Positions 17,189 to 63,618 of a DNA stretch of 64,000 nucleotides are shown here, one piece after another. Position numbers and translations under genes: made by a program. The stretch covers positions 187,927-251,926 of the forward strand of contig JAQUOT010000001.1 of assembly GCA_028716945.1 (NCBI GenBank), read 5' to 3'. The DNA is from Candidatus Nanoarchaeia archaeon. Its GTDB lineage: Archaea > Nanobdellota > Nanobdellia > SCGC-AAA011-G17 > JAFCDX01. The notes under the pieces were generated by a model. That model worked only from the letters and a program-made list of their open reading frames with translations. It made no database searches and had not been told where the DNA came from. Positions within the stretch are counted from its first letter, which is position 1. Each line of letters starts with the position of its first letter.

Positions 17189-17338
17189 GGAGCGGTAGCT
17201 CAGAAAGGTTTTGAAGTTTAAGACCTTGAGCAACCTGGGAGAGCATAGAAATATCTCAAACCACGCTGAAGCCGTGGATGAAAGGTTATACGTCTAGTAT
17301 ACCTTGCCAAATCGGGGGTTCAAATCCCCCTCGCTCCA
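17189..17338 (+). tRNA. tRNA-Phe (anticodon GAA) with three introns (17204..17233, 17245..17259, 17281..17311)
   Basis: The hand fold gives acceptor GGAGCGG/TCGCTCC plus A73. The D-arm is GCTC-AGCCTGGGA-GAGC after removal of a 30-nt insert. The anticodon arm is CCACG-CTGAAGC-CGTGG, the variable loop ATGTC, and the T-arm GGGGG-TTCAAAT-CCCCC. The spliced product is 74 nt. Each intron is bounded by a BHB-like motif with 3-nt bulges. An AT-rich TATA-like tttaaatatat lies about 30 nt upstream. Confidence 0.85.
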
Positions 17339-18026
17339 TTTTCTTTATATTTTTAATATTAGAACTTCTTATTAATTTAATAAAAGAGGAGGCATTATTA
17401 TAACCGCTTATTTGTATTTTATATTTTTCATACCTTTTATTAGTTCTTTTATCTATATAATTTTCATGTCCTACATAATGATCTATCTTTTGAATTTTAA
17501 TCCAATCAGATATTTTGTATATTAAATTTTTATCTTTTAGACCAAGATTAATAACTGGATAAAATTTATATTTTCCGTGATTCTTTTTTAAACACAAAGA
17601 ACCATCTGTATCAAAAATTCCTTTAATGAATGCTTTAGCATAAATTTTATTATCCCATATCCATCGAGGAACCTTATTTCTATAATTTATTTTTTTATAA
17701 CCTATAATATTAAGAAAAGATAATATCCCTTTAGATCTCTTTGTTAAGATTAAAGTATTAATCTTTTTCTTTTGATATAAATTCATCTTTACATTGAATA
17801 AAAACAAAACTTTATCTTTAATATAGTTTGAATAATTCCTCTCATCTTTGAGATTACTAAAAATAGAAAAAATATAATCATTGCTTCCTAAATTATAATA
17901 AACATGGCCATCTCCAGACAAAATACCTAAAAATTCTGACAAGTCTCTAGAAGAGGATTTAGGAAAAATAATTTTATTCTTAATATCTTGGTGACTTAGT
18001 TGAATATCTGATAAATCAAATTTCAT
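17286..18026 (-). CDS. LAGLIDADG family endonuclease (two-motif, free-standing), paralog A
   Basis: Track ORF 17286..18068. I chose the start MKFDLSD at 18026, matching paralog B. The two motifs are LGILSGDGHV and IKGIFDTDGSL. The last 53 nt are antisense to the tRNA-Phe 3' part. Confidence 0.8.
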   Translation of the reverse strand: MKFDLSDIQLSHQDIKNKIIFPKSSSRDLSEFLGILSGDGHVYYNLGSNDYIFSIFSNLKDERNYSNYIKDKVLFLFNVKMNLYQKKKINTLILTKRSKGILSFLNIIGYKKINYRNKVPRWIWDNKIYAKAFIKGIFDTDGSLCLKKNHGKYKFYPVINLGLKDKNLIYKISDWIKIQKIDHYVGHENYIDKRTNKRYEKYKIQISGYNNASSFIKLIRSSNIKNIKKMERGGFEPPIWQGILDV

Positions 18027-18048
18027 GATTAATAAAAAGCGAATTTGA

Positions 18049-18105
18049 TTTATAAATCTGGCGCGCACCCATCTGCAAGTTGCAATTTGTTAGAATATAT
18101 ATTTT
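18049..18105. repeat. Conserved 57-nt block upstream of LAGLIDADG paralog A (TATA-like box plus GC-rich and palindromic core)
   Basis: The sequence tttataaatctggcgcgcacccatctgcaagttgcaatttgttagaatatatatttt is nearly identical to 63404..63459, apart from a 2-nt indel and a local shift. It contains the palindrome tgcaaGttgca. Confidence 0.85.
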
Positions 18106-18163
18106 GTGGAATATAGATAGACGCCTTAGAAACCTTTAAATATAATCTAAGATTAATTAAGAT

Positions 18164-18676
18164 ATGCAAAATAAAAAAGGTGCAATTGAACTTTCTATGA
18201 CCACTATTATAGTTATTATTCTTGGAGTCACTTTATTGAGTTTAGGATTAATGTTTATTAAAGGAACATTTGGAAACATAACTGATATTACAGACAAAAC
18301 TTTTGATCAAGCTGATGATATAATAAAAGATTATATGGTAACTGGAACAACCAAAATGTACATTCTTGATTCAAACGTAGCAATGAAAGCAGGAACTATA
18401 AATACAATATATGTGGGTATTAAAAATCAACTAGGAAGAGATGATGAATTTTATTTGAAAGCAAAACCTGCAAATGATAAAAGCGATGTAGGTTGGTTAG
18501 AGCTTGCAACAGAACCACAAACTATAGAAGCTGGAAGTTATGCTACAATTGCTTTTTTCCTTAAAGTTCCTAAAAAAACGATTCCTGGAGAAACATATAT
18601 TTATTCTATAGAATCATATGCAAAGAGTCAAACAAAACCTTATGCTAATCAGCTTTTAACAGTTATAACAGAATAA
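18164..18676 (+). CDS. Archaeal type IV pilin-like protein (class III signal peptide)
   Basis: 170 aa. The N-terminus MQNKKGAIELSMTTIIVIILGVTLLSLGLMFI shows a basic-Gly cleavage context followed by a hydrophobic helix, as in archaeal prepilins. Confidence 0.6.
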   Translation: MQNKKGAIELSMTTIIVIILGVTLLSLGLMFIKGTFGNITDITDKTFDQADDIIKDYMVTGTTKMYILDSNVAMKAGTINTIYVGIKNQLGRDDEFYLKAKPANDKSDVGWLELATEPQTIEAGSYATIAFFLKVPKKTIPGETYIYSIESYAKSQTKPYANQLLTVITE

Positions 18677-18710
18677 ATAACTTTTTAAATTAAATTTCTT
18701 TCATTTTCTT

Positions 18711-20099
18711 ATGATAAAACTATTCAATACCTTAACAAGAAAAAAAGAAGAGTTTAAACCAATTAAAACTAAAGAAGTGGGAATTTATTCTTGTGGATTA
18801 ACCGTTTATAATTATGGGCATATAGGTAATTTTAGAGCTTTTGTATTTGCAGACTTATTGCATAGATATTTTGAATACAAAGGATTTAAAGTAAAACATA
18901 TTACAAATATAACTGATGTAGATGATAAAACCATTCGTGATTCACAAAAAGAAAAATTATCTTTAAAACAATTTACTTCTAAATATGAAAAAGCTTTTTT
19001 TGAGGATATTAAAACTTTGAATATTAAAGAATCTTTCAAATATCCTAAAGCTACAGAACACATTAAAGAAATGGTTTCTATAATAAAAAAATTATTAGAT
19101 AAAGGTTATGCTTACAAAACAGATGATGGAATTTATTTTAAAATTTCTAAAGATAAAGAATATGGTAAATTAGCTCATTTAAAATTTGCTGATTTAGAAG
19201 CAGGAGCATCTGAAAGAGTAACAAAAGACGAATATGATAAAGAAAATGTACAAGACTTTTGTTTATGGAAATTTTATGATAAATTAGATGGAGATGTTTT
19301 CTGGGATACAGAAATTGGAAAAGGAAGACCTGGATGGCATATAGAATGTTCTGCAATGTCAATGAAATATCTAGGAGAAACCTTTGATATTCATACTGGT
19401 GGAATTGATTTAATATTTCCTCATCATGAAAATGAAATTGCTCAATCAGAATGTGCAACAGGGAAAAAATTTGTAAATTATTGGTTGCATAATGAATTTA
19501 TTTTAGTTGATGGTAAAAAAATGTCTAAATCTCTGGGTAATTTTTATACTTATAGAGATGTTCTTGCAAAAGGGTATTCTGGAATGGAAATAAGATATTC
19601 CTTATTAAGCACACATTATAGAATCCCATTTAATTTTACTTTTGAGGGGCTTGATTCTGCTAGAAACTCGCTAAAAAGACTTAATGAATTTGTAAATAGA
19701 TTAAATTTTGTAAAATCAGACAAAGATAGCAAAAAAGTTTCTGATTTAATTAAAAACGTTAAAAAAGAATTTGAAGAATCCTTAGATGATGATTTAAATA
19801 TTGCAAATGCTCTTGCTTCAATCTTTGGTTTTATCAGTGAGATAAATAAATTAAAAATAAGTAAAAAAGAAGCAAAAGAAATATTAAAAACATTAAATGA
19901 ATTTGATCAAGTTCTTGGTTTAAACTTAATTTCAAAAAAAGAATCTATTCCAAAAGAAATAAAAGAATTAATGGATAAAAGAGAAAAATATAGAAAAGAA
20001 AAAGACTGGAAAAAGGCCGATGAAATTAGAGATAAATTAAAAGAAAAAGGATTTGTTCTTGAAGATACTAAAGAAGGAATTATTTGGAAAAAAGCTTAA
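18711..20099 (+). CDS. cysS: Cysteinyl-tRNA synthetase
   Basis: 462 aa. It has YSCGLTVYNYGHIGNFR (HIGH region), WHIECS and KMSKSLGNF. Confidence 0.9.
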   Translation: MIKLFNTLTRKKEEFKPIKTKEVGIYSCGLTVYNYGHIGNFRAFVFADLLHRYFEYKGFKVKHITNITDVDDKTIRDSQKEKLSLKQFTSKYEKAFFEDIKTLNIKESFKYPKATEHIKEMVSIIKKLLDKGYAYKTDDGIYFKISKDKEYGKLAHLKFADLEAGASERVTKDEYDKENVQDFCLWKFYDKLDGDVFWDTEIGKGRPGWHIECSAMSMKYLGETFDIHTGGIDLIFPHHENEIAQSECATGKKFVNYWLHNEFILVDGKKMSKSLGNFYTYRDVLAKGYSGMEIRYSLLSTHYRIPFNFTFEGLDSARNSLKRLNEFVNRLNFVKSDKDSKKVSDLIKNVKKEFEESLDDDLNIANALASIFGFISEINKLKISKKEAKEILKTLNEFDQVLGLNLISKKESIPKEIKELMDKREKYRKEKDWKKADEIRDKLKEKGFVLEDTKEGIIWKKA

Positions 20100-21598
20100 A
20101 ATTTATCATCATAAGGCACTAGTTCTATTTTACTTATCTCATCTACATGTTTTTTAGCTTTATCTAGTATTTGTTTAAACATATTTTCATAAGAAACTAT
20201 TTTTCCATCTAATTTTAATTTATAATTATGGAGTTCTGATTGTAGATTAATTTTGTCTCTGTTCAATTCTTGACAAACACCTGTTCTAGGTTTAAATTCT
20301 AAAGGTTTATCAAAAAATTTGTATAAATATTGTACTGCTCCAAAATAATCATCAGGAGATTCTCCAACAGTAATTTCATCCACTCTATTCATAAAATTAT
20401 TAAAATGACTTAATAATTGGTAAAAAGCATCTTGATGTATCCCTGTATATAGTTTTCCTGTAGGAACATCTAATTTTAAGTCCCATTTTTTAGTAAAAGA
20501 TAAAAAAAGTTCTTCAATAGTTTTTGGTGAATCTTGTTTTTTAGTTCCTTCTACTTCTGAAGCAGGTAATCCTTTTATTAATTCATAAAAAGTTTTTACG
20601 CTTTCCAAATTTTGGTAATTTAATAAATTATTTTTTAATTCTGGAATTAAATTTCTTTTTTTAACACCTTTGATATTAAATCTTTCTATTAATTCAGATA
20701 ATTCATTTTTATAATAATCTTCTGTTATATCTTTTTTAATAAATTTTTGTATTAAAGGACTTAATTCCATATCGAGAACTACTTCTAAAGTAGCTTGATC
20801 TTTTATTATATCTTGTAGAGAACGTGAAACAAATCCGTCTATATTTTCTAGAACATAACTAAGTGTCCATATTCTTAACTTTTTTAATTTATGATAATTT
20901 TTTTCTAAATTTTGTTTTAGATTATTCTGTAATCTTTGCTTTACTGAAAATTGTATTCCTACACCAAAATCTATTTTATCAACAACTTCTTTATAATTAT
21001 TTATTATAGCTTCTAATGTTTCAAAGGTACTCCCTAAAATAGTTTCTCTTTCTCCATATTCATGATTAGGATGATAATTATCAAAAGATTTTATATAAAC
21101 TTCTAAGGATTTTAAAAATTGAACATTATCAAATACAAATAAGTCTACAGGATCAATTATAGATTGTTCATCATTAATCATAAAAGTATGAATCTGTTTA
21201 ACAAATTTTAATGATTTAAGTTTGTTTAACCCAGTGGAAACTTCTTGAACCGGACGATGAAGAATGTCTGCTATTCCTTCTAAAGTTTCTCCTTTCTTAA
21301 TTAAAGACATTAATGAAATATAAAAAGGATCTTTTAGAATTTCTTCGTTAGATTGATTAATTTGTTTCAAATCTACTTCCCATTGGTCTGCTTGTTTAGA
21401 TATAGAACGTTCAGTATAAGATTGATAAAGGTTATTTAACCAAGGTAAATTATCTATTAAATTTGAAGTAGAATTTCCTTTAAGTGAAGCTATTTGTTCT
21501 GAATCTGTTTGAGTTGAAATTGGTTTTCCTAGAGCTAAAGCTAATTTTTCCAATTCTGCTTGCATTTCTTGATCTAACTTTTCTACCATTTTTATCAC
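20096..21598 (-). CDS. Hypothetical 500-aa protein with a possible winged-helix segment
   Basis: Long uninterrupted ORF. The stretch ISLMSLIKKGETLEGIADILHRPVQEVSTGLNKLKSLKFVKQ looks wHTH-like. I recognise no family. Confidence 0.65.
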   Translation of the reverse strand: MIKMVEKLDQEMQAELEKLALALGKPISTQTDSEQIASLKGNSTSNLIDNLPWLNNLYQSYTERSISKQADQWEVDLKQINQSNEEILKDPFYISLMSLIKKGETLEGIADILHRPVQEVSTGLNKLKSLKFVKQIHTFMINDEQSIIDPVDLFVFDNVQFLKSLEVYIKSFDNYHPNHEYGERETILGSTFETLEAIINNYKEVVDKIDFGVGIQFSVKQRLQNNLKQNLEKNYHKLKKLRIWTLSYVLENIDGFVSRSLQDIIKDQATLEVVLDMELSPLIQKFIKKDITEDYYKNELSELIERFNIKGVKKRNLIPELKNNLLNYQNLESVKTFYELIKGLPASEVEGTKKQDSPKTIEELFLSFTKKWDLKLDVPTGKLYTGIHQDAFYQLLSHFNNFMNRVDEITVGESPDDYFGAVQYLYKFFDKPLEFKPRTGVCQELNRDKINLQSELHNYKLKLDGKIVSYENMFKQILDKAKKHVDEISKIELVPYDDKF

Positions 21599-21679
21599 TA
21601 TATAATAGATACGCTATTTAAAAACTTTTCGATATTAAAAAATAAAAAAGAAATTTATTTATTGTTGCCCTGCTTGGGT

Positions 21680-22528: not shown

Positions 22529-22701
22529 TTATTGCCTCCATCAAAATTTTTATTAATATTAGATTAATAAGATTATATATAAAGAAACTTTATTTGTAAA
22601 AAATTTAAAGCTTTACGAAGCTTCTTAACACTATTTGGAACTCATTTTAAGCTTCTTTTTATTAAAGAAAATTATATAAAGCTTTAATAGTTGTAGCTAC
22701 A

Positions 22702-23343: not shown

Positions 23344-23380
23344 AAACCTTTTTAAAGGGGTTATATCTTTCTAAATTAAT

Positions 23381-23794: not shown

Positions 23795-23795
23795 A

Positions 23796-23963
23796 ATGGT
23801 AAAAAGATTAATACAAAAATTAAGATTAGGAAAAAGATTAGCTCAAACAAAGTGGGCTCCATTCTGGACTATTCCAAAGAAATATGGAAAAGGTCGTAGA
23901 GTACATCCTTCAAGACATACTGAAATTAAAAGATCCTGGAGAAGAACCAAATTAAAAGTATAA
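23796..23963 (+). CDS. rpl39e: 50S ribosomal protein L39e
   Basis: Hand-translated 55-aa ORF, below the ORF-track cutoff: MVKRLIQKLRLGKRLAQTKWAPFWTIPKKYGKGRRVHPSRHTEIKRSWRRTKLKV. It is tightly packed between S19e and L31e. Confidence 0.85.
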   Translation: MVKRLIQKLRLGKRLAQTKWAPFWTIPKKYGKGRRVHPSRHTEIKRSWRRTKLKV

Positions 23964-23964
23964 A

Positions 23965-24489: not shown

Positions 24490-24520
24490 TTTTTATATTC
24501 ATAACTTATCTTTCACAAAT

Positions 24521-35955: not shown

Positions 35956-37266
35956 TTATTTTTTATTCTTTTTAGAATCTTTTCTCATTCTTGATTTTCT
36001 TATAGCATAATTTACAGGATTTTTTATCATTTTACATAATCCATCAGGCACACAAATCGCCATGCTTTTATAATAAGCAGGATTATCACAATTAGCAGGT
36101 AAAATGATGTTAGATTGTTTTTTAGACCATTCTAACTGAGATTTAGCATAACCTTCTCTTAAAGGTTCATAATTTTTCTTATTCCACTCATTCAAAGTTT
36201 TCTCAATTTTATCCAAAGGCCAATTGCAATGCCTTAAAAAATTAATTAAAATGAAAACTGCTCTTTTTCTTCCATCTTCTTTTAATCCTTTTAATAATAA
36301 TTTAATACAGGGAGGAAAATCTTCTTCTAAAATCTCATCTGTAGAGTTTTCATAAGTTTTCTTTTCTAATATTTTAACATCGGCTTTTTGGTTTTTCATG
36401 TTCCAATCATAAGATTGTAATAATAAATTTCTTGCACTTTCTTTGGTAACATTTTCCATATCTAAAAATATTAATTTAACTTTTACATTTTCAATTTTTG
36501 CATCTTCTAGTTTGAAAGTTCTTAATGCTTCTTTAGTTGGATTTAAAGGAATACTAACTAAATTAGATTTTTCATTTATAGAATATGGAGCACGAAACAT
36601 ATGCCTTGAAGAAATTAAAACAGAATCTATATCTACAATAGAATAAGGATCAAATTTTCCCTCTTTAACTAAATCTTTCATATGTTTAGTAAATTTTAGA
36701 GAAAGTTTATCTAAAGAATAAATCTTTAAAATCCTTTCAGTTAAAAAAGGTTTTATCATTTCTTTCAGGTAATTTGCAACTATTCTAACTAATTCTGGAA
36801 ATAATAATCTTGTTTGTTTTCCATTTAATTGTTCAGGAAAAGATTCATAAGGTATTCCTATATGAAATCCATGATTACCTGAAAATTTCAAGGAGATATC
36901 TTTTACATCATGAAAGATTAATGCTTCTAATAATAATTCTGCAGTAATTCTTGATATTTCTACATCTTTACAATCTATATCTAATAATAAATCCCACCCA
37001 CTTCTATTTTCATCTAATTCTCTTTTATTCATTCCAGGTTTTAATTGTAAGGGATCATGCCACCTTTCTTCTGAAATATGAAAAGAAGTCATTCCTTTTT
37101 TAACTAAATCATCTATATCTCCAGGAAAATTGATTGTATCTGGTCTTTTACCTCTCACATCAGAAAACCAGGCTTGCACTTCCCTATTTTGTGCTATCTT
37201 TAATAATTCATCTTTTACATCTTTTCTAGAATAATATTCTCTTATTTTCTTATAATCCAATTGCAT
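35956..37266 (-). CDS. priS: DNA primase, fused PriS catalytic domain plus PriL-CTD-like Fe-S domain
   Basis: 436 aa. The AEP motifs are DLLLDIDC (DxD) and SGNHGFHI. The C-terminal part has FPPCIKLLLKGL...GRKRAVFILINFL plus CDN..C....C, like the PriL C-terminal domain. Confidence 0.7.
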   Translation of the reverse strand: MQLDYKKIREYYSRKDVKDELLKIAQNREVQAWFSDVRGKRPDTINFPGDIDDLVKKGMTSFHISEERWHDPLQLKPGMNKRELDENRSGWDLLLDIDCKDVEISRITAELLLEALIFHDVKDISLKFSGNHGFHIGIPYESFPEQLNGKQTRLLFPELVRIVANYLKEMIKPFLTERILKIYSLDKLSLKFTKHMKDLVKEGKFDPYSIVDIDSVLISSRHMFRAPYSINEKSNLVSIPLNPTKEALRTFKLEDAKIENVKVKLIFLDMENVTKESARNLLLQSYDWNMKNQKADVKILEKKTYENSTDEILEEDFPPCIKLLLKGLKEDGRKRAVFILINFLRHCNWPLDKIEKTLNEWNKKNYEPLREGYAKSQLEWSKKQSNIILPANCDNPAYYKSMAICVPDGLCKMIKNPVNYAIRKSRMRKDSKKNKK

Positions 37267-55792: not shown

Positions 55793-55844
55793 AATTAATT
55801 CTAAATATTAACCTTTATAAATCTTAACTAAGTTTAAACATTAT

Positions 55845-55939
55845 AGCCCCTTAGTGTAGTGGCCAAATTGATTAAAAATCAAGGCTAGGCATACGAGACT
55901 CTGGATCTTGTGACGGAAGTTCGAATCTTCCAGGGGCTA
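55845..55939 (+). tRNA. tRNA-Gln (anticodon CTG) with a 22-nt D-loop intron (55867..55888)
   Basis: The acceptor is AGCCCCT/AGGGGCT (an A1-U72 pair as in archaeal tRNA-Gln) plus A73. The anticodon arm is CGAGA-CTCTGGA-TCTTG and the T-arm GGAAG-TTCGAAT-CTTCC. The BHB is GGCC|AAA|TTGA...TCAA|GGCT|AGG. The spliced D-arm is GTGT-AGTGGCCAA-GCAT, giving 73 nt. A TATA-like ctttataaat lies about 25 nt upstream. Confidence 0.85.
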
Positions 55940-55940
55940 C

Positions 55941-56013
55941 GCTCCCATAGTCTAGCGGTTAAGGATATGAGCTTCTCGAGCTCGTGACCTGGGTTCAAAT
56001 CCCAGTGGGAGCA
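55941..56013 (+). tRNA. tRNA-Glu (anticodon CTC), uninterrupted
   Basis: The acceptor is GCTCCCA/TGGGAGC plus A73. The D-arm is GTCT-AGCGGTTAA-GGAT, the anticodon arm TGAGC-TTCTCGA-GCTCG, and the T-arm CTGGG-TTCAAAT-CCCAG. Only 1 nt separates it from tRNA-Gln. Confidence 0.9.
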
Positions 56014-56183
56014 TAATCAACTTCATTCTTAACTCACAGCGCTCAAATAATTATCCCTTCTTATAAGACTTATAACCTTAGTTCTTAACTCTGAGAGTTA
56101 GCAACAGTTATGATGTTGCTCTAGTAAACTATTATATCCTAAATCACAATAATATTTAAAAAGATAATTGAACTAAATTTAGT

Positions 56184-56366
56184 ATGAAAAACTCGTTAAA
56201 TGAGCTACTTATTTATCTAGGGATATTGATAGGATTATTTAATACATTTATGATACCAAATATATTGGAGATATCTAAAATATTCTGGTGGATTTCTGGT
56301 ATCGCGGTATTAATATTTACTATACCTACGCTTATTAAAGCATATCAAGTTATTATAGGCAAATAA
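56184..56366 (+). CDS. Small two-TM membrane protein, hypothetical
   Basis: 60-aa ORF with two hydrophobic helices. I recognise no family. Confidence 0.4.
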   Translation: MKNSLNELLIYLGILIGLFNTFMIPNILEISKIFWWISGIAVLIFTIPTLIKAYQVIIGK

Positions 56367-56384
56367 ATTATAGGGGTTAAAAAG

Positions 56385-56636
56385 ATGTTTAATAAAAAAG
56401 ATTTATCAAATGTTAAAACAATATTCTTGAGCCCATTATTTTGGAAATATTCTACAATCACTTTATCAGAAATATTTTGTGTTTTTGTTATTTCCAATAT
56501 ATTATTTTCTACTGACCCTTGGTTTACAAATCTATATAAAACCCCCTATGTTATTTTCTTATTATTATTCCTCTTCCTTTATTATGTAATGGAAATATTT
56601 AAACAAAGGGAAAACTTACAAAAAGTAAAAATATAA
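56385..56636 (+). CDS. Small membrane protein, hypothetical
   Basis: 83-aa ORF with 2-3 hydrophobic segments, preceded by aggggt 8 nt upstream. Confidence 0.4.
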   Translation: MFNKKDLSNVKTIFLSPLFWKYSTITLSEIFCVFVISNILFSTDPWFTNLYKTPYVIFLLLFLFLYYVMEIFKQRENLQKVKI

Positions 56637-56653
56637 AATAGACATCTGTCGAT

Positions 56654-56681
56654 TTATCTTCTCGAAGATAATAATCTTTTT
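56654..56681 (+). terminator. Hairpin plus T-run, candidate transcription terminator
   Basis: The palindrome ttatcttc-tc-gaagataa is followed by aatcttttt about 20 nt after the stop at 56636. Confidence 0.35.
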
Positions 56682-56861
56682 ATACCTCTTTATCCTTATA
56701 CTAAAAACAGCGCACAAAAGTCTGATTAACAAAACAAAGGACAGGAAACTGACCTTAGTAGAGTTAAGGACAAAGTTGGTTCCGCACGGCGGGAGCATCT
56801 ATAATTTTACTATTTCTAAATTATAAATAAACTTTATATAGTTGCTTCACTTAATTATATT

Positions 56862-57827
56862 ATGTTAAGGTTAGAAATTCCTAAAGAAGATTTGGTAAAT
56901 CTATATGAAAAAGAGAAACTTACAACTTTTCAAATAGCGGAAAAACTTAATTGTTGTCAAGCAACAATCTGGAAAAGATTAAAAGAATATGATATAAAAA
57001 CAAGAATTTCTGGAATTGAGAGGGTTAAAATAACAAAAGAAAAACTTTTTGATTTATATATAAATAAAAAATATTCTACTTGGAAAATTGAAAAAATAAC
57101 TGAAATCCCAAGGGGAACGATACATAGAAAACTTAAAGAGTTTGGAATTCAATCAAGAGATATTTCCGACTCCCATATTATCTATGAAAAAAGAGATTTT
57201 TCTGGGGATCCTTTAGAAAAAGCTTACCTTATAGGATTTAGAATTGGGGATCTGGGAGTTAGAAAAAGAGGTGCTAAAAGTAAATTAATCTGTGTTGCTA
57301 GTGGAAGCACCATAGAAGAACAGATAATTCTAATAAAAAATTTATTTAAAAATTATGGAAAAGTTTGGATTAAAAAATCAAAAAATAATAAAATAAATGT
57401 ATATGTATACCTTAATTTATCTTTTGGTTTTTTATTAGATAAAAAGATTCCAAAAGAATTAGAAAAAAACAAAAAACTATTTTTTGCATTCCTGGGAGGA
57501 TTTACAGATGCGGAAGGGAGTATGAAATTAAATAAAAATATGGCTTATTATTCTTTAGGAAATTATGATAGTAAATTATTATTTAAGATATATAACTATC
57601 TAAATAAATATGGAATAAAATGTAATAAACCTCATTCAGATAATAGAATTGGAACTTTCAATAGTCAGGGATATAAATACAACTCAAATTATTGGACATT
57701 AAAAATTTGTAGAAAAGAAGAATTATACAAATTACTTAAAGAATTAAAACCTCACATTAAACATAAAAATAAAATAAAAGATTTAAATATAGTAGAAAAT
57801 AACCTAATCGAAAGGATTAAAAGTTAA
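56862..57827 (+). CDS. LAGLIDADG family endonuclease with two N-terminal HTH repeats
   Basis: 321 aa. A repeated HTH unit is present (LYEKEKLTTFQIAEKLNCCQATIWKRLKEYDIKTR and LYINKKYSTWKIEKITEIPRGTIHRKLKEFGIQSR). The LAGLIDADG motifs are AYLIGFRIGDLGV and AFLGGFTDAEGSM. Confidence 0.75.
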   Translation: MLRLEIPKEDLVNLYEKEKLTTFQIAEKLNCCQATIWKRLKEYDIKTRISGIERVKITKEKLFDLYINKKYSTWKIEKITEIPRGTIHRKLKEFGIQSRDISDSHIIYEKRDFSGDPLEKAYLIGFRIGDLGVRKRGAKSKLICVASGSTIEEQIILIKNLFKNYGKVWIKKSKNNKINVYVYLNLSFGFLLDKKIPKELEKNKKLFFAFLGGFTDAEGSMKLNKNMAYYSLGNYDSKLLFKIYNYLNKYGIKCNKPHSDNRIGTFNSQGYKYNSNYWTLKICRKEELYKLLKELKPHIKHKNKIKDLNIVENNLIERIKS

Positions 57828-57844
57828 AAAGATAATATATTAAC

Positions 57845-59371
57845 ATGAAAAAGTTTTACGTAACAACCCCAATATATTATGTAAATGATATAGCTAGTAT
57901 AGGCCATGCTTACACTACTTTTGCAGCAGATACCTTAGCTAGATGGCATAGATTAAAAGGAGAAGATGTTTTTTTCTTAACAGGTTTAGATGAAAACTCT
58001 CAAAAAACAGTCAAAGCAGCAGAAACTGCAGGTGTTAAAGATTTAAAAGAATATACTAATCAAATGGCTTTGAAATGGACTTCTACTTGGAAAAATCTAA
58101 ACATTTCTAATAATGGATTTATAAGAACTACTGAAGCTAAACATAAAAAATTAGTAAAAGAATTCTTTATGAAAGTGTATGAAAAAGGGGATATTTACAA
58201 AGGGAAATATGAAGGATTATATTGCGAAGGATGTGAATGTTTTTATACTGAATCAGACCTAGTAGAAGGAAAATGTCCTTTTCACAAAACAGAACCAAAG
58301 TTTATATCTGAAGAAAATTATTTTTTTAAATTAACAAAATATGCAGATAAAATATTAACTTACATAGAAAAAAATCCTGATTTTATTTTACCTAATTCCA
58401 GAAAAAATGAAGTTGTAGAATTTATTAAGATGGGATTAAAAGATATTAGTATTTCTAGACCAAATGTTGATTGGGGAATTCCCTTACCAATAGACAAAAA
58501 TCATCATTTCTGGGTATGGTTTGATGCTTTACCAAATTATATCACTGGAGCTCCAAAATATTGGCCTGCAAATTGTCATTTATTAGCAAAAGATATTTTA
58601 AGATTCCATTGCGTTATTTGGCCTGCTATGTTAATGAGTGCAGGTTATGACTTACCAAAACAATTATTTGTACATGGATTTTTAACTATTAATGGACAAA
58701 AGATGTCAAAATCTTTAGGCAATGCTATAGACCCAAATGTTTTAGCTCAAAAATATTCTGTAGATTCATTAAGATATTATTTAATGCGTAGCATTCCATT
58801 TGGAGAAGATGGAGATTTTTCAGAAAAAGCATTAATAACAAGAACAAATACAGAATTAGCAGATTCTCTGGGTAATTTATTAAATAGAGTTGTTTCTATG
58901 TGTGAAAAATATTATGATTCTAAAATACCAAAAGCAAAAGAAGACAAAGAATTAAGTTCAAAATTAGATTTTAAAAAAATTGATTCCTTAATATTAAATT
59001 ATAAGTTACATGAGGCTTTAGCAGAAATATTTTACTTTGTAGATCAATGTAATAAATATGTAAATGAAAAAGAACCTTGGAATTTAGCTAAAAATCAGAA
59101 AGAAGATGAACTTGAAAAGGTTTTATTTAATTTGGCAGAATCATTAAGAATAATTTCTCAATTAATTTATTCTTTTATGCCAGAAACAGCAGAAAAAATA
59201 AATGAACAGCTTGGATTTAAATTAAGAGATAGTTTTGACTTGAAATGGGGTAATGCAAAATCAAAAGGTATAAAAAAAGGAGAAACTTTGTTTAAAAAAA
59301 TTGGCCTAACTGATGGACTTAAAAAATCTTCAAATGATGGTTTAAAAGGGGGACCTAGAAATGGACTTTAA
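57845..59371 (+). CDS. metG: Methionyl-tRNA synthetase, catalytic core and anticodon-binding domain only
   Basis: 508 aa. It has TTPIYYVNDIASIGHAYT (HIGH-like), the CEGCECF...CPFH Zn knuckle and KMSKSLGN. It ends in a Gly/Lys-rich tail without the usual C-terminal tRNA-binding domain. Confidence 0.9.
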   Translation: MKKFYVTTPIYYVNDIASIGHAYTTFAADTLARWHRLKGEDVFFLTGLDENSQKTVKAAETAGVKDLKEYTNQMALKWTSTWKNLNISNNGFIRTTEAKHKKLVKEFFMKVYEKGDIYKGKYEGLYCEGCECFYTESDLVEGKCPFHKTEPKFISEENYFFKLTKYADKILTYIEKNPDFILPNSRKNEVVEFIKMGLKDISISRPNVDWGIPLPIDKNHHFWVWFDALPNYITGAPKYWPANCHLLAKDILRFHCVIWPAMLMSAGYDLPKQLFVHGFLTINGQKMSKSLGNAIDPNVLAQKYSVDSLRYYLMRSIPFGEDGDFSEKALITRTNTELADSLGNLLNRVVSMCEKYYDSKIPKAKEDKELSSKLDFKKIDSLILNYKLHEALAEIFYFVDQCNKYVNEKEPWNLAKNQKEDELEKVLFNLAESLRIISQLIYSFMPETAEKINEQLGFKLRDSFDLKWGNAKSKGIKKGETLFKKIGLTDGLKKSSNDGLKGGPRNGL

Positions 59372-59528
59372 CATAAAAAATTGTACTTTATGTTATTCAA
59401 TAAAAGGTGAACAAATTCTTTTAGGTATTAAAAAAAAGGGTTTTGGAAAAGGAAATTTAAATGGGTTTGGTGGGCATGTAGAAGATAATGAAACAATTAA
59501 AAATAGCAATATACAAGTAATAATGTGA
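59361..59528 (+). pseudogene. Truncated Nudix (MutT/MTH1-like) hydrolase fragment
   Basis: Hand-translated 55 codons: MDFNIKNCTLCYSIKGEQILLGIKKKGFGKGNLNGFGGHVEDNETIKNSNIQVIM. It matches the N-terminal part of Nudix proteins up to the start of the Nudix box (GGxVExxET). It then stops before the REUxEE core. Confidence 0.5.
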
Positions 59529-59534
59529 TCTAAA

Positions 59535-59900
59535 ATGGTAGAAGGCATAAAAAAAGCAGAACATTGTGGGGATAAAATAACTATAGATGAATTTGGAAAA
59601 GTAGATCTAAGAATTGCTCAAATTAAAGCAGTAAAAAATCATCCTAATGCAGATAAATTATATATTCTTGATGTAAGTTTAGGCAAAGGAGAACATGATG
59701 TTCAAATTGTAGCAGGAATAAGGCAAGCCTATACTGAAGATGAATTAATTGGAAAGAAAATTATAATGGTTAGAAACTTAGAACCTGCAGTATTAAGAGG
59801 AGTAGAAAGTGAAGGTATGTTATTAGCTGCAGAATTCAAAGGAAAAATAGTTCTTTTAACAGTTGATAAAGATATAGAAACTGGGGCTAAAATAAAATAA
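59535..59900 (+). CDS. Stand-alone tRNA-binding domain protein (Trbp111/MetRS C-terminal domain-like, OB fold)
   Basis: 121 aa. VDLRIAQIKAVKNHPNADKLYILDVSLG....QIVAGI......L.GKKIIMVRNLEPAVLRGVESEGMLLAA is present. Confidence 0.8.
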   Translation: MVEGIKKAEHCGDKITIDEFGKVDLRIAQIKAVKNHPNADKLYILDVSLGKGEHDVQIVAGIRQAYTEDELIGKKIIMVRNLEPAVLRGVESEGMLLAAEFKGKIVLLTVDKDIETGAKIK

Positions 59901-59902
59901 TT

Positions 59903-60304
59903 ATGAAAAAAGTTTTAGTTTGGGGAACCTTTGATGGATTACATAAAGGACATTTAGAATTTCTAAAAAATGCGAAGAGTTTAGGAGATAAATTATATAT
60001 TATAATTATCCCAGACAAAGCAGTAAAAGAAAACAAAGGGAAATACCCTATAAAAAATGCAGAAGAAAGAAAAAAAGAATTATTAAAATTAAAATTTGTA
60101 ACTGAAGTTTATAGCGGACTTTATGAGGAGAATTTAAAATACATTTTAAAATTAAAACCAGAGGTAGTTATCTTCGGATATGATCAAAAAACTAAATGGG
60201 AAGAAAATCTAAAGAAAACTCTTTCTTCAAAAGGAATTTTTCCAGAATATATTTATTTAGAAGAATATAATAATGGAATTCATTCTAGTGATTTAAATAA
60301 ATAA
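59903..60304 (+). CDS. Cytidylyltransferase-family nucleotidyltransferase (RibL/FAD synthetase-like)
   Basis: 133 aa. VLVWGTFDGLHKGHLEFLKNAKSLGDKLYIIIIPD contains the (T/H)xGH motif. Confidence 0.6.
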   Translation: MKKVLVWGTFDGLHKGHLEFLKNAKSLGDKLYIIIIPDKAVKENKGKYPIKNAEERKKELLKLKFVTEVYSGLYEENLKYILKLKPEVVIFGYDQKTKWEENLKKTLSSKGIFPEYIYLEEYNNGIHSSDLNK

Positions 60305-60323
60305 AAAAAAGAAAAAAATAAAT

Positions 60324-60506
60324 TTATTTACAACATTTTGATGCCCACATTAATTTATGTAGTCCCATCAAAATTATTAAAACAGCAAATAATTGTACTA
60401 TAGTTGGTTGTTTAAGCCAAGCCCAAAGACCAATTGCTATTAAAATTAGTCCACCAACTAAAATCATTGGTTTAGAATGTTTGCACATTCCCATTTCTTT
60501 TGCCAT
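60324..60506 (-). CDS. Small two-TM membrane protein ending in CCK, hypothetical
   Basis: 60-aa ORF that appears paralogous to the adjacent 56-aa ORF (shared GLW...G..KL pattern). Confidence 0.4.
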   Translation of the reverse strand: MAKEMGMCKHSKPMILVGGLILIAIGLWAWLKQPTIVQLFAVLIILMGLHKLMWASKCCK

Positions 60507-60510
60507 TTTC

Positions 60511-60681
60511 TTATTTCATTAACTTATAATTTCTTACAAGTTTACCTATACCTATTACTAAAACTACTAAAGCTACAATCCAACCTTGCAAATTAAGCAA
60601 TGAAGCAGGTATTACACCTAATTGTGCTAGAACTAGCCATAGACCAAGTATAGTTACTAACCAAGCTGTTAGTTTTGCCAT
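60511..60681 (-). CDS. Small two-TM membrane protein, hypothetical
   Basis: Hand-translated 56 aa: MAKLTAWLVTILGLWLVLAQLGVIPASLLNLQGWIVALVVLVIGIGKLVRNYKLMK. It is preceded by aaggagg on the minus strand. Confidence 0.4.
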   Translation of the reverse strand: MAKLTAWLVTILGLWLVLAQLGVIPASLLNLQGWIVALVVLVIGIGKLVRNYKLMK

Positions 60682-60786
60682 TTTTTCCTCCTTTTATTGA
60701 GTTATATGAGAGAAATGACTCCCAACCACCTAAGAATCTAAAGGACTTTAGGTTTATAAAGATTTTTATAAGGTTTTAAAAGTATA

Positions 60787-60882
60787 TGAGCCCGCGGAGA
60801 TTTGAACTCCGGGCCCCCACCAATGATTTGGTTTAAATCCAATTTATCAGAGTGGTGCGCTACCAGGCTGCGCCACGGGCTC
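60787..60882 (-). tRNA. tRNA-Ile (anticodon GAT) with a 22-nt anticodon-loop intron (60822..60843)
   Basis: Read on the minus strand, the acceptor is GAGCCCG/CGGGCTC plus A73. The D-arm is GCGC-AGCCTGGTA-GCGC, the anticodon arm CCACT-CTGATAA-GGTGG after splicing, and the T-arm CGGAG-TTCAAAT-CTCCG. The BHB is TGAT|AAA|TTGG...CCAA|ATCA|TTG. The mature product is 74 nt. Confidence 0.85.
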
Positions 60883-60961
60883 ATGAGATATATTGTTAAA
60901 AGATAATTTATAAGGTTTTTGAATTGATAAAGTTTAAATAATATTAAATTTTAACTATCCT

Positions 60962-61630
60962 ATGCAGAGGTGGCTACATAAATTAGAACATTGGGTAGAT
61001 AAATTAATACCTATCTCTTTAATTGTTTTAATTGGTTTAATCATAGGAGAATTATTCTATAAAGAACAAATACATCCTTATTTAACTTTTGTAACAATAG
61101 CAGATTGGGGTATAATAGGTTTATTTGTTATAGATTTAACTTTTAAATGGTTCAGAGTAAGAAATATTCCAAAATTCTTAAAAAAATATTGGTTAGATAT
61201 TTTAGCTATATTTCCGTTTTTTTTAGTTTTTAGAGCTTTAGAAGGAGTTGGAGAATTAATTACTGTAGTAAGCGAATACTTTACTCCTACACAAAAAGTA
61301 GTTCATGCTGGAACAGAAATAGGTAAAGAAGTTATAATAATAGAGGAAGGTACTGCTAAAATAATTAAAGAAGCTGAAGCAGCAGGAAAATTATCAAGAA
61401 CAGAAAGATTTGCAAGATTTTTAAGACCTTTAGCAAGGGCTCCAAGATTTTTACATTTAACAGATAAAGATACAAAAAAAGAATTTAAAAAAGAGATTAA
61501 ATTTATAGAAAAAGAAGAAAGAAAAGTAGTTAAAAAAGAAGAATCTTTCTTTGTAAGATTATATAAACATATAGTAAAAGTAATTGTCTTCTTTGAAAAA
61601 CCTTCTCATCATAAAAAGAGAAAGATTTAA
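60962..61630 (+). CDS. Voltage-sensor-domain-like membrane protein without a pore domain
   Basis: 222 aa. Three N-terminal TM helices include YWLDILAIFPFFLVF (S3-like). After a soluble insert of about 50 aa comes an Arg-repeat segment, RFARFLRPLARAPRFL (S4-like). I see no pore or selectivity-filter sequence. The tail is basic. Confidence 0.5.
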   Translation: MQRWLHKLEHWVDKLIPISLIVLIGLIIGELFYKEQIHPYLTFVTIADWGIIGLFVIDLTFKWFRVRNIPKFLKKYWLDILAIFPFFLVFRALEGVGELITVVSEYFTPTQKVVHAGTEIGKEVIIIEEGTAKIIKEAEAAGKLSRTERFARFLRPLARAPRFLHLTDKDTKKEFKKEIKFIEKEERKVVKKEESFFVRLYKHIVKVIVFFEKPSHHKKRKI

Positions 61631-61673
61631 AAGAAGCGGCAGTTAACAACCACCGTCAAATTTTAAATAAAAA

Positions 61674-62687
61674 ATGGAAAAAAAAGAAATACTTGCACAT
61701 TTTAGTTATGGAAGTGCTATAAGAAATGCTATAGAAAAAATAACTAATGCTAATCGTGGAGTTTTAGTTGTTTTTGTTAAAGATAAGGGTATTAAAAAAA
61801 TAAGTGTTGGTGGTTTTAAAATAAATGAAGAGTTTTCTGAAGAAAGACTTGCTGAATTAGCAAAATTAGATGGAGCAATATTGGTAGATAATAAACTACA
61901 AAAAATAATTAGTGCTAATGTCTTATTAAATCCGAGTATAAAAATTCCTAGTACAGAAACAGGTACAAGACATCAAGCAGCAGAAAGAACTGCAAGACAA
62001 TTAGATACAATGGTTCTTGCTATTTCTGCAAAAACAGGAACTGCAATGGTATATCATGGAAATGGTAAATTAAAATTAAATAATTTAGGTAAAATATTCA
62101 CAAAGACTGGAGAAGCACTAAGAATTATTGAAAAGCATAGAGAATTATTTAAAGTTTTAATAAAAAAGTTTGATACTTTTGAATTATTAGAAATGGTTAC
62201 ATTAGAAGACCTTGCTTCTATATTTCAAAGAGAAAAAATAATGGATTCTGTTGCAGATATAATCTCTGTTTATTTAAGCGAATTAGGTGATGAAGGAGAA
62301 TTAACAGAATTACAATTAAAAGAAATTATAACTTATGTTCATGCAGAATTAGCTGCAATTATGGCAGATTATCATGATTATTTTAATTTTGATAAGATAA
62401 TTGAAGAATTAAAAGACTTAAAACGTGATGAAATTGTAGTTAAAGAAAACATTTTTAAAATATTCTTAGATAATAGAAAAAAAGAAGATACATTAATACC
62501 GAAAGGTTATAGAATATTAAAGAACATCCCTATTTTAACAGAAGAAAATATAAAGTTATTAATGGAAACTTTCCCAAGTTTAAAAGAATTAATTTCTGCT
62601 CAAGAAGAAGAATTAGCTGCTATCAAATCTATAGGAAATAAAAAGGCTAAAGCTATAAGAGAATATCTATTAAAAGCACAGATTTAA
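61674..62687 (+). CDS. disA: DisA-type diadenylate cyclase (DAC domain, helical linker and C-terminal HhH)
   Basis: 337 aa. The DAC motifs are LDGAILVD and ETGTRHQAAERTARQ. The layout is collinear with bacterial DisA, and the C-terminus has IKSIGNKKAKAIREYL (HhH). Confidence 0.8.
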   Translation: MEKKEILAHFSYGSAIRNAIEKITNANRGVLVVFVKDKGIKKISVGGFKINEEFSEERLAELAKLDGAILVDNKLQKIISANVLLNPSIKIPSTETGTRHQAAERTARQLDTMVLAISAKTGTAMVYHGNGKLKLNNLGKIFTKTGEALRIIEKHRELFKVLIKKFDTFELLEMVTLEDLASIFQREKIMDSVADIISVYLSELGDEGELTELQLKEIITYVHAELAAIMADYHDYFNFDKIIEELKDLKRDEIVVKENIFKIFLDNRKKEDTLIPKGYRILKNIPILTEENIKLLMETFPSLKELISAQEEELAAIKSIGNKKAKAIREYLLKAQI

Positions 62688-63382
62688 GAATTATTTCTAA
62701 AATAATAATATTTTTTCCAATGTTTGGGGTTATTAGGAGAGATAATTTTCATCCATTTATTTAACATAAATTCTCCTCTAATTGAAACCTTATATAAATC
62801 TAACCAATTATGATTTTTATGTTTATAAGAATAGATTGTAGAACGAATTCCTAATTTGTTTATTAAATTATTTAATTGTAATCCTAAAGGTTTAGAAGTG
62901 GTGCTTATCTCTAAACGAGGATATAATTTTTTATATTTTGGTTGTAAATATAAAGTTCCATCCGTATCAAAGATTCCTTTAACCACATTAATAGTATACT
63001 CCTTTCTATTTAAGAAACAAGAAGGTATACAAATATCAAATTTTTTACCAAGAGGTAATTTAAGAATTTTATTTTTAAATTCGATTAATGAATCATCCCA
63101 AATTTGAAATCCAAATACTTTTGTAGAAGGCATTTCTTTTGGTTTTATTTTTAAATCATAAACTTTTTTATATAAATCTATAATTTTATTATTATAATGT
63201 TCTTTATCATCAAACATATGCCCCCTTAAAGAATAAAGTCCTTTAGACGTATTTCCGTTTTTGTAAAAATTCATACTTCCATCTCCAATATGCAATCCTG
63301 TTTCTTCTGCTAATTCTATTATTGGTTTTTCTGGAAGTATAAGTTTAGTGCTTTGCTTAATGTCAGATAAATCAAACTTCAT
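62684..63382 (-). CDS. LAGLIDADG family endonuclease (two-motif, free-standing), paralog B
   Basis: 232 aa. It starts MKFDLSDIKQS like paralog A. The motifs are TGLHIGDGSM and VKGIFDTDGTL. Confidence 0.8.
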   Translation of the reverse strand: MKFDLSDIKQSTKLILPEKPIIELAEETGLHIGDGSMNFYKNGNTSKGLYSLRGHMFDDKEHYNNKIIDLYKKVYDLKIKPKEMPSTKVFGFQIWDDSLIEFKNKILKLPLGKKFDICIPSCFLNRKEYTINVVKGIFDTDGTLYLQPKYKKLYPRLEISTTSKPLGLQLNNLINKLGIRSTIYSYKHKNHNWLDLYKVSIRGEFMLNKWMKIISPNNPKHWKKYYYFRNNS

Positions 63383-63403
63383 AATTAAGATAAGTAAATT
63401 TCA

Positions 63404-63459
63404 TTTATAAATCTGGCGCGCACATCTTGCAAGTTGCAATTTGTTAGAATATATATTTT
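63404..63459. repeat. Conserved 56-nt block upstream of LAGLIDADG paralog B
   Basis: tttataaatctggcgcgcacatcttgcaagttgcaatttgttagaatatatatttt is the counterpart of 18049..18105. It lies between tRNA-Asn and the endonuclease gene. Confidence 0.85.
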
Positions 63460-63488
63460 AGAGAATATATTTTAAATAAAAAGAAAAG

Positions 63489-63618
63489 CGCCTTAGGGAG
63501 GACTCGAACCTCCGACCACCTGATTAACAGTCTCACCTTTCCATATTGGAAAACAGGTGCTCTACCCTTCAGATCTTCTGAACCTAAAAGGCCAGATGGT
63601 TTGCTGAGCTACTAAGGC
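63489..63618 (-). tRNA. tRNA-Asn (anticodon GTT) with two introns (63567..63601 in the D-loop, 63532..63553 in the anticodon stem at 30/31)
   Basis: Read on the minus strand, the acceptor is GCCTTAG/CTAAGGC plus G73. After splicing the D-arm is GCTC-AGCAGGTA-GAGC and the anticodon arm CCTGA-CTGTTAA-TCAGG. The variable loop is TGGTC and the T-arm GGAGG-TTCGAGT-CCTCC, giving 73 nt. Both introns are bounded by BHB motifs (TCAG|CAA...CTGA|AGG and CACC|TGT|TTTCCA-ATA-TGGAAA|GGTG|AGA). Confidence 0.85.

Follow-up and report, generated by a model that had tools for sequence, protein, structure and literature searches.

Seven probable bulge–helix–bulge introns in four of five tRNA genes of a low-GC Nanoarchaeia genome and their absence from a close relative

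The tRNA genes and their surroundings

We analysed a stretch of 64,000 nucleotides (nt) from a Candidatus Nanoarchaeia archaeon (assembly GCA_028716945.1, contig JAQUOT010000001.1, positions 187,927 to 251,926 of the forward strand), hereafter the window, in which four of the five tRNA genes are interrupted by a total of seven short insertions. The GC content is 26–30% along the entire window (27% overall), and the host belongs to the class Nanoarchaeia of the DPANN superphylum. A ribosomal-protein/SecY cluster of the archaeal kind, recognized by eye from the translations, and a TrmY-like methyltransferase are among the window products, and the nearest public relatives are metagenome-assembled genomes (MAGs) labelled Candidatus Nanoarchaeia, Woesearchaeota, and Nanoarchaeota.

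The whole window was scanned for T-arms and then for an acceptor strand pairing with an upstream 7-mer, and exactly five tRNA genes were found: tRNA-Phe(GAA) at positions 17189–17338 of the plus strand (150 nt with three introns, 74 nt when spliced), tRNA-Gln(CUG) at 55845–55939 (+; 95 nt, one intron), tRNA-Glu(CUC) at 55941–56013 (+; 73 nt, uninterrupted), tRNA-Ile(GAU) at 60787–60882 (−; 96 nt, one intron), and tRNA-Asn(GUU) at 63489–63618 (−; 130 nt, two introns). As the window has no more than five GC-containing T-arms, it contains no orphan tRNA halves, and split or permuted tRNA genes were rejected because each of the five T-arms has a collinear 5' acceptor strand no more than 150 nt away. 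Second copies of the interrupted tRNAs were not found within the window, nor was any Rfam family of group I or group II intron RNAs.

The standard finders recover this set only in part. ARAGORN reported tRNA-Glu and tRNA-Ile alone; Rfam placed Glu (63 bits), Ile (53.3 bits), and, barely, Phe (31.6 bits) above the gathering score and Gln (26.9 bits) below it, and did not detect Asn. At normal thresholds, two of the five genes (Gln and Asn) thus escape both programs. Promoter-like boxes of the form AAACCTT(T)ATAAAT lie approximately 25–37 nt upstream of Gln, Ile, and Asn, a TTTAAATA box precedes tRNA-Phe, and T-rich stretches follow Phe, Ile, and Asn. The tRNA-Glu gene has no promoter of its own and begins 1 nt after tRNA-Gln; the two are probably co-transcribed.

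Sites and motifs of the seven introns

The insertions are distributed as three in tRNA-Phe, two in tRNA-Asn, and one each in tRNA-Gln and tRNA-Ile. We evaluated them in one bulge–helix–bulge (BHB) register, the same on both strands, consisting of an outer helix h, a 4-base-pair (bp) central helix H, a 3-nt bulge, and an inner helix h', with the cut assumed after the second bulge base of either strand.

In tRNA-Phe, the first intron lies at 15/16 (17204–17233, +; 30 nt) and forms an HBh' motif, with a central helix GCTC/GAGC of 4 bp, no outer helix, and an inner helix of 10 bp. The second, at 25/26 (17245–17259, +; 15 nt), has the hBHBh' form with h, H, and h' of 3, 4, and 2 bp, and the third, at 46/47 in the variable loop (17281–17311, +; 31 nt), has an outer helix of 3 bp, an inner helix of 5 bp, and three of the four central pairs. 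The tRNA-Gln intron (55867–55888, +; 22 nt) is situated at 21/22 and is of the HBh' type, with H GGCC/GGCU, no outer helix, and an inner helix of 6 bp. For the tRNA-Ile intron (60822–60843, −; 22 nt) the best register is 38/39, with H UGAU/AUCA, the 5' bulge AAA, an outer helix of 1 bp, and an inner helix of 4 bp. The tRNA-Asn gene is interrupted in the D-loop at 17/18 (63567–63601, −; 35 nt; H 4, h 2, h' 1 bp) and in the anticodon stem at 30/31 (63532–63553, −; 22 nt; hBHBh' with h 2, H 4, h' 6 bp); the latter intron is a member of a widespread 30/31 class with ..AAGGTGA ends.

For each insertion, the BHB or HBh' motif falls precisely on the pair of cuts that would yield a canonical tRNA. The central helix is complete (4/4 bp) in six introns and reaches 3/4 bp in Phe 46/47. 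Three introns, Phe 25/26, Phe 46/47, and Asn 30/31, show the strict hBHBh' form, and in three others, Phe 15/16, Gln 21/22, and Ile 38/39, the outer helix is absent or weak, as in HBh' motifs. In a test in which the exons were kept fixed, the intron was shuffled, and the motif was scored at the fixed register, the probabilities for single introns ranged from <5e-5 to 8e-3 (Fisher-combined p ~6e-18); a few registers were picked among two or three equivalent placements, which leaves the conclusion drawn from this test unaffected. The products spliced in silico are 73–74 nt long, and ARAGORN calls all four as full cloverleaves with the anticodons GAA, CTG, GAT, and GTT. The GC content of the introns is 20–43% as against 52–66% in the exons. 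Logan assemblies of three separate sequencing runs contain the intron-bearing Gln and Ile genes in identical form, and the insertions are therefore not an assembly artefact.

The first-pass annotation of this DNA, made from the letters alone, had described seven introns in four of five tRNA genes with Glu intact, and the register, the spliced cloverleaves, and the alignments with a close relative bear out these sites. It had also stated that no intron occupies the strict canonical site 37/38, which agrees with the register of the Ile intron and with base A38 (see below), and that several motifs are relaxed, which is true of the three HBh' cases and, in a different way, of Asn 17/18. The Gln intron, which it had placed in the D-loop, can now be assigned more precisely to the junction of the D-loop and D-stem.

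Comparison with a sister genome and an outgroup

A sister genome is represented by contig JBAZJB010000001.1 (L005) of Ca. Nanoarchaeia archaeon SO_2017_LW4_109 and by a contig from ENA (L084) with the same ValRS protein. It is syntenic with the window at a DNA identity of ~90% (84–96%), and the identities of ValRS, L3, L4, TrmY, and a DisA-like protein are 92–98% (ValRS 92%, TrmY 98%). The Gln, Glu, Ile, Asn, and Phe tRNA genes occupy the same loci in the sister, and all of them are intronless. Pairwise alignments place all seven gaps at the predicted junctions, and the D-loops, variable loop, and anticodon loops of the sister equal those of the spliced products of the window. The tRNA-Ile gene of the sister and of most relatives reads CTGATAA|GG, i.e., with A38; together with the BHB register, this supports a position of the Ile intron at 38/39, one nucleotide off the canonical 37/38. 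The lack of introns in the same five genes of the sister indicates that the trait is volatile and not fixed; the earlier suggestion of tRNA fragmentation as a genome-wide trait gains no support here.

As an outgroup, we used GCA_018816395.1 (L170), in which a three-intron tRNA-Phe gene is located beside ValRS (ValRS identity 74%). Its 25/26 intron, ATAGAAATATCTTAA, is identical to the window's Phe 25/26 intron at 14 of 15 nt. Its 46/47 intron has the position and ends of the one in the window (AAAG...CTTGCCAAA) and a conserved BHB; by our own reading, the inner helix is kept via paired changes (AAGGT/ACCTT vs AAGAC/GTCTT). Since both introns are common to L170, they predate the split of window and sister, and the sister either lost them precisely or gained an intronless allele. 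The 15/16 intron is missing in L170. The third insertion of that gene, 29–30 nt long, lies in the T-loop (about 59/60, ~2405–2435, −), where a strict BHB was sought and not found.

The introns Phe 15/16 and Phe 46/47 resemble each other (AAAGGTT...ACCTTGAGCAA vs AAAGGTT...ACCTTGCCAAA), and none of 1000 shuffles reached their score; the same shuffle test showed no significant similarity for the other 20 pairs among the seven introns. By this comparison, the Phe 15/16 intron is new in the window. It is a copy of the 46/47 intron, and its own last bases are fitted to pair with the D-stem. The intron mobility that had been raised in the first-pass annotation thus gains direct support. The tRNA-Asn 30/31 intron is also present in Nanoarchaeia contig L089 and in contigs L124 (Aenigmarchaeota by its EndA homologues) and L146, which suggests its loss in the sister.

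Some of the interrupted loci differ from the sister in more than the introns. The Gln and Glu exons are 79% and 78% identical to those of the sister (L005 9816–9962), as against ~95% in the flanks, and by eye most window–sister differences in the tRNAs lie in stems as paired changes; the two genes, 1 nt apart in the window, directly abut in the sister according to the ARAGORN coordinates. The MetRS gene downstream, which is of bacterial type, is only 71% identical to that of the sister, while the neighbouring genes reach 95–99%, and it adjoins a 1.83-kb insertion. These sequence differences suggest that MetRS and the adjacent insertion (window 56014–59371 vs L005 9963–11482) form a replaced segment. 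As an anchor for finding relatives, MetRS served poorly owing to its bacterial type: bacteria accounted for 74 of the 80 loci returned.

Proposed splicing mechanism and the splicing endonuclease

Overall, the data make it very probable that the seven insertions are ordinary archaeal protein-spliced BHB tRNA introns of a low-GC Nanoarchaeia DPANN archaeon. On this reading, each pre-tRNA would be transcribed from its own promoter, with a TFB recognition element (BRE) and a TATA box, Gln and Glu probably together. Four nucleotides in the 3' part of the intron would pair with four nucleotides of the 5' exon to form the central helix, flanked by 3-nt bulges on either strand; EndA would cut each strand behind the second nucleotide of its bulge, and the exons would be joined by an RtcB-type ligase into canonical tRNAs of 73–74 nt. 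Since three motifs have no proper outer helix, the enzyme would have to accept relaxed HBh' substrates outside the anticodon loop. Turnover of the introns is fast: Phe 25/26 and 46/47 predate the divergence from the outgroup, Phe 15/16 is a later copy of the 46/47 intron, and precise loss of all seven, or replacement by intronless alleles, would have taken place in the sister.

The first-pass annotation predicted an EndA of the alpha2beta2 or epsilon2 type. This restriction is too narrow: Kaneta et al. 2018 (PMC5829648) found alpha4 EndAs carrying an additional loop, 'L3', in several DPANN lineages rich in disrupted tRNA genes and concluded that the type of subunit is the least important factor. 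EndA loops that allow relaxed BHB motifs to be cleaved are documented in the literature, and the alpha4 enzymes with L3 count among the broad-specificity forms, as do alpha2beta2 and epsilon2 enzymes with loops of their own. The intron pattern would therefore also be compatible with a homotetrameric EndA. Among the metagenomic loci that we collected, two carry a single-unit EndA gene that adjoins both a LAGLIDADG gene and an intron-bearing tRNA-Asn: L124 (4234–4905, +; complete, 213 amino acids (aa)) and L146 (2–415, −; partial). Compared with M. jannaschii EndA, both proteins have an additional Lys-rich segment of 6 aa that separates the catalytic Tyr from the catalytic His. L124 is placed in Aenigmarchaeota by its closest EndA homologues; because its enzyme comes from a different phylum, it is only an indication for the lineage of the window. 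A functional link between EndA and LAGLIDADG genes, which the adjacency in L124 and L146 might imply, was set aside, as the adjacency probably reflects the conserved top6B–top6A–tRNA–endA synteny of Aenigmarchaeota. In L168 and L169, the order top6B–top6A–(gap with small open reading frames)–endA is likewise conserved, and a LAGLIDADG remnant lies in the gap of L169. A weak EndA match beside MetRS in L033 is not EndA.

Several points weigh against the reading of the insertions as ordinary spliced introns. Neither phmmer, for which M. jannaschii EndA served as the query (it matched PDB 1a79), nor an EndA hidden Markov model (HMM) detected an EndA in the window, and a search seeded with the L124 EndA returned Aenigmarchaeota proteins only, none of them from the 766-kb contig of the sister; exact-protein look-ups of window proteins in pursuit of EndA led only to short Logan contigs of the same strain. 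The inner helix of Asn 17/18 measures 1 bp in the strict register, the 5' bulge being possibly enlarged as judged by eye, and the 3' bulge of the Ile intron is reduced to 2 nt opposite C32 if a normal anticodon stem forms. The tRNA survey covers the five genes of the window. Only for Phe does the outgroup settle whether introns were gained or lost; for Asn 30/31, distant relatives do so, and the molecular route of gain and loss is deduced from these comparisons. Finally, cleavage and ligation in vivo and the exact cut sites are predicted from the sequence.

LAGLIDADG genes beside the tRNA genes

Three free-standing open reading frames (ORFs) of the LAGLIDADG family lie beside tRNA genes of the window. 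Gene 1 (17286–18026, −) is oriented convergently to tRNA-Phe, with an overlap of 53 nt at the end of the tRNA gene; gene 2 (56862–57827, +), a Pfam LAGLIDADG_3 member with N-terminal helix–turn–helix (HTH) repeats, is situated together with two small ORFs inside the 1.83-kb insertion (56014–57844) in the interval between tRNA-Glu and MetRS; gene 3 (62684–63382, −) starts 106 nt downstream of tRNA-Asn. Relative to the Pfam LAGLIDADG_3 cut-off of 22.5 bits, scores of 37.6 (gene 3) and 23.9 lie above and that of gene 1, 20.2, just below. Both acidic motif residues are kept in all three proteins, with G33-D34 and G136-D139 (numbering of the first sequence) as invariant columns, and the PDB matches, the best of which are 7qsu, 7qss, 1dq3, and 5ak9, include intein endonuclease domains, I-DmoI, and I-AniI.

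The occupancy of these sites differs between the two genomes. The gene 1 cassette (~17340–18126, ~790 nt) is not present in the sister, where a short spacer separates tRNA-Phe from the next gene, and the insertion with gene 2 is missing there as well, so that the Phe and Glu/MetRS sites exist as occupied alleles in the window and as empty alleles in the sister. The Asn site is occupied in both, the LAGLIDADG gene of the sister being ~30% identical to gene 3 and belonging to another cluster, between flanks that are ~93–97% identical. Elsewhere, the subfamily of gene 3 sits directly upstream of tRNA-Ile(GAU).

A conserved element of ~75 nt (..TTCTAACAAATTGCAACTTGCAAGATGTGCGCGCCAGATTTATAAAT..) precedes the LAGLIDADG ORFs at 63383–63469 (−), with a second copy at 18027–18115; a four-way alignment also includes the copies of the sister (L005 17104–17190) and the outgroup (L170 ~2880–2960). 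Independent short-read contigs end near this element, which is consistent with a repeat. In L170, it precedes tRNA-Phe with no intact LAGLIDADG ORF after it, although no search aimed at LAGLIDADG genes was made on this contig.

A metagenome scan with the LAGLIDADG protein alignment yielded 80 loci, of which 72 had enough downstream sequence. In 55 of these 72, a tRNA gene starts no more than 150 nt from the end of the ORF, usually at 30–100 nt and on the same strand, and the adjacent tRNAs were confirmed by ARAGORN and Rfam; the adjacency of LAGLIDADG and tRNA genes in metagenomic loci is thus solid. Clustering of the proteins shows that subfamilies track the isotype of the neighbouring tRNA in hosts of 25–49% GC: approximately 35 members adjoin Ile-GAU, other subfamilies adjoin Arg-CCU, Arg-UCG, Leu-CAA, and Ala-CGC, and a looser group of tree neighbours (window gene 1, L146, L158) adjoins Phe. 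A limited literature search turned up no description of such isotype-specific pairing of LAGLIDADG and tRNA genes in DPANN.

The LAGLIDADG endonucleases of archaeal rRNA introns and inteins (I-DmoI, PI-PfuI) are of the same fold family, have archaeal hosts, and are likewise tied to BHB-spliced RNA genes. Their genes, however, lie inside the intron or intein, whereas the ORFs of the window lie outside the tRNA genes, and the window introns of 15–35 nt are far too short to encode such ORFs. A GIY-YIG endonuclease of phage T4, SegB, is encoded in a tRNA gene cluster, and its homing has been shown experimentally. As here, the segB gene stands beside tRNA genes, is present or absent between close relatives, and is accompanied by divergence of the neighbouring sequence; the genes described here differ in coding for LAGLIDADG proteins, in having cellular archaeal hosts, and in being known from genes alone.

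Alternative explanations

The introns might be tied to the free-standing LAGLIDADG genes, being kept as immunity or co-converted during homing if these endonucleases target intronless tRNA genes; introns and compensated stem changes would then break the DNA target and leave the mature tRNA unaltered. We give this explanation a low probability. It would explain the sharp contrast between the intron-rich, endonuclease-bearing alleles of the window and the intron-free alleles of the sister: the Phe locus has three introns and a cassette, and the Gln/Glu locus has an intron and a LAGLIDADG insertion, of which the sister has neither. The location of the three ORFs beside tRNA genes, their kept acidic residues, and their nearest matches (archaeal intein endonuclease domains and I-DmoI) also fit, as do the difference between the Asn-site genes of the two genomes, which belong to different clusters, and the low identity of the Gln/Glu exons within well-conserved flanks. 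Across the metagenomic loci, the tight spacing and the tracking of isotypes point the same way, although the latter could reflect old vertical synteny. Furthermore, tRNAs longer than 92 nt make up 32 of 64 LAGLIDADG-adjacent genes and 3 of 18 others (Fisher p = 0.015, ignoring isotype and phylogeny). Against this explanation, about half of the endonuclease-adjacent tRNAs are intronless, as is the tRNA-Asn of the sister beside its LAGLIDADG gene. Conversely, the tRNA-Ile genes of L026 and L038 have introns and no nearby LAGLIDADG gene, and cleavage and target alike are presumed from the sequence.

A wider form of this explanation, to which we assign the same low probability, is that every LAGLIDADG subfamily of DPANN specializes in a single tRNA gene (Ile-GAU, Arg-CCU, Arg-UCG, Leu-CAA, Phe, and others), with introns and fast compensated stem changes as the host-side outcome. 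An intron would interrupt the DNA target and EndA would erase it from the RNA, which would amount to immunity, and the introns would spread by co-conversion.

A second alternative concerns one intron of the seven: if the Ile intron were canonical, at 37/38, the statement that none is canonical would fail in this case. Removal of 22 nt at 37/38 also leaves a 74-nt tRNA, with U38 instead of A38, and the introns of tRNA-Ile(GAU) in L090, L094, and L108 fit 37/38. We nevertheless consider this unlikely, because no 4-bp central helix with 3-nt bulges forms at 37/38, while UGAU/AUCA and the AAA bulge fit 38/39, and because A38 is found in the intronless sister and most relatives.

According to a third alternative, introns shield tRNA genes from viral or plasmid integrases by interrupting att-like sequences, an idea that reportedly goes back to Randau and Soll in 2008. 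The insertions do fall in the D-arm, the anticodon stem, and the variable loop, and mobile elements have been implicated in the disruption of a Caldiarchaeum tRNA gene (PMC3293823). However, no integrase family was found in the subset of window ORFs scanned against Pfam and no duplicated tRNA 3' fragment within the window, and the usual att sites, the 3' halves, are intact in Gln, Ile, and Asn and interrupted in Phe only at 46/47 in the variable loop. Defence against integrating elements, also put forward in the first-pass annotation, moreover gains no direct support, and a foreign gene cassette directly adjoins the 3' end of Phe, the most fragmented gene. We regard this explanation as quite improbable.

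That the interrupted genes are decaying pseudogenes or assembly artefacts from which the insertions are not removed has a negligible probability: the standard finders do miss or under-score three of them, but the BHB register is far beyond chance, differences from the sister are largely paired stem changes (by eye), promoters and downstream T-rich stretches are present, two introns and their BHBs are conserved in the outgroup, no other copies exist in the window, and the sequence is identical in independent assemblies.

Introns in related DPANN genomes and comparison with known systems

The 80 DPANN metagenomic loci mentioned above (L088–L167), which were retrieved by the LAGLIDADG scan and not for their introns, contain 82 unique tRNA genes, 35 of which exceed 92 nt. 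Most of the long tRNAs submitted to Rfam were confirmed at the same coordinates. It should be noted that an automatic BHB-splicing solver was ambiguous or wrong for several of them (L088, L095, L127), so that cases clear by eye and gene length were used. The clear cases in related contigs comprise 30/31 introns ending in ..AAGGTGA in Ile, Asn, and Lys (a similarity partly forced by pairing with the exon), 21/22 introns in Ala, Arg, and Thr, and 37/38 introns in Ile. Many tRNAs of DPANN thus have introns of similar kinds at 30/31, 21/22, and 37/38. In this part of the superphylum, introns that are non-canonical or multiple are common, as also found by Kaneta et al. 2018 (PMC5829648), although they are unstable within a genus. 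In a Woesearchaeota contig of 43% GC (L004 2596–2744, −), a multi-intron tRNA of 149 nt, apparently Ile-GAU (GGGCCC... type), lies near MetRS, which indicates that the trait is not confined to very AT-rich genomes.

The pattern of the window resembles that of Thermoproteales (Sugahara 2007, 2008; Fujishima 2010; review PMC4033280), where tRNA genes contain up to three BHB introns at non-canonical sites with relaxed HBh' motifs, related introns occur at different sites as a result of transposition, and changes between relatives are rapid. Here, in contrast, the host is a DPANN archaeon of the class Nanoarchaeia with 27% GC and not a crenarchaeon, one paralogous intron pair was found, none of the seven introns is at 37/38, and the splicing enzyme in DPANN is probably not the alpha2beta2 type bearing the crenarchaea-specific loop (CSL). 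The DPANN lineages with loop-bearing EndA (ARMAN-2 with epsilon2, N. equitans with alpha2beta2, and those with alpha4 and L3; PMC5829648) belong to the same superphylum as the window, have an excess of non-canonical and multiple introns, and give incomplete tRNA sets with standard predictors. Whereas Kaneta 2018 maps EndA types and intron classes per genome, the comparison with a sister and an outgroup made here dates individual introns.

Another similar case is tRNA-Thr(GGU) of Caldiarchaeum subterraneum (Sugahara 2012, PMC3293823), where introns are gained or lost in the short term between close relatives next to a gene of a mobile element. There, a single locus is involved, together with a 1.8-kb element encoding a recombinase and a tRNA fragment scattered elsewhere, while the window has five loci, seven introns versus none, LAGLIDADG genes, and no fragments of tRNAs. 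Both the copying in Thermoproteales (PMC4033280) and the locus heterogeneity in Caldiarchaeum (PMC3293823) accord with the turnover observed in the window.

The seven introns are a well-documented Nanoarchaeia case of a phenomenon known from Thermoproteales, ARMAN, and other DPANN. Because standard finders miss such genes, both tRNA counts and estimates of MAG completeness are distorted. The trio of window, sister, and outgroup is a natural experiment, in that genomes with ~90% DNA identity differ by seven introns versus none in five orthologous tRNA genes; one intron was caught as a fresh copy, two can be followed as precise losses or allele replacements in the sister, and the seven-versus-none comparison makes the gain and loss of archaeal tRNA introns directly testable. 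The pairing of LAGLIDADG and tRNA genes may link intron turnover to homing endonucleases, and dedicated endonucleases, if real, would explain, both by selection and by a vehicle at the DNA level, how non-canonical archaeal tRNA introns come to be gained, lost, and scattered.

Other features of the window and its relatives

At the end of the window (63658–64000, −, running off the end), the 3' end of top6A carries at least 80 codons, inserted in frame, that are not present in the sister's Top6A; only the last ~21 residues match the C-terminus of the sister protein. By eye, the insertion resembled a fragment of a reverse transcriptase or maturase, but Pfam, which found no match, does not support this reading. 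Two relatives differ from the window near ValRS. In one with 73% ValRS identity (L085 9732–12110), the aRF1 gene beside ValRS contains an intein with LAGLIDADG_3 (792 aa), and in the sister (L084 12378–14309), ValRS and aRF1, which abut in the window, are separated by an ORF of 643 aa that matches no Pfam family.

At 35956–37266 (−), one ORF of 436 aa matches the families of both the small and the large DNA primase subunits, as expected of a fused PriS–PriL; such an arrangement is known from Nanoarchaeum-like archaea. Near the beginning of the window, two very large Cys-rich secreted or membrane proteins are encoded at 1187–3877 and 3874–5895, and a 245-nt direct repeat (944–1188 and 3630–3874, 97%) covers the start codon of each and the sequence upstream of it. 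Five small ORFs (109–131 aa) at 11722–13650 form a tandem family with a common Cys-rich sequence and an N-terminal hydrophobic stretch.

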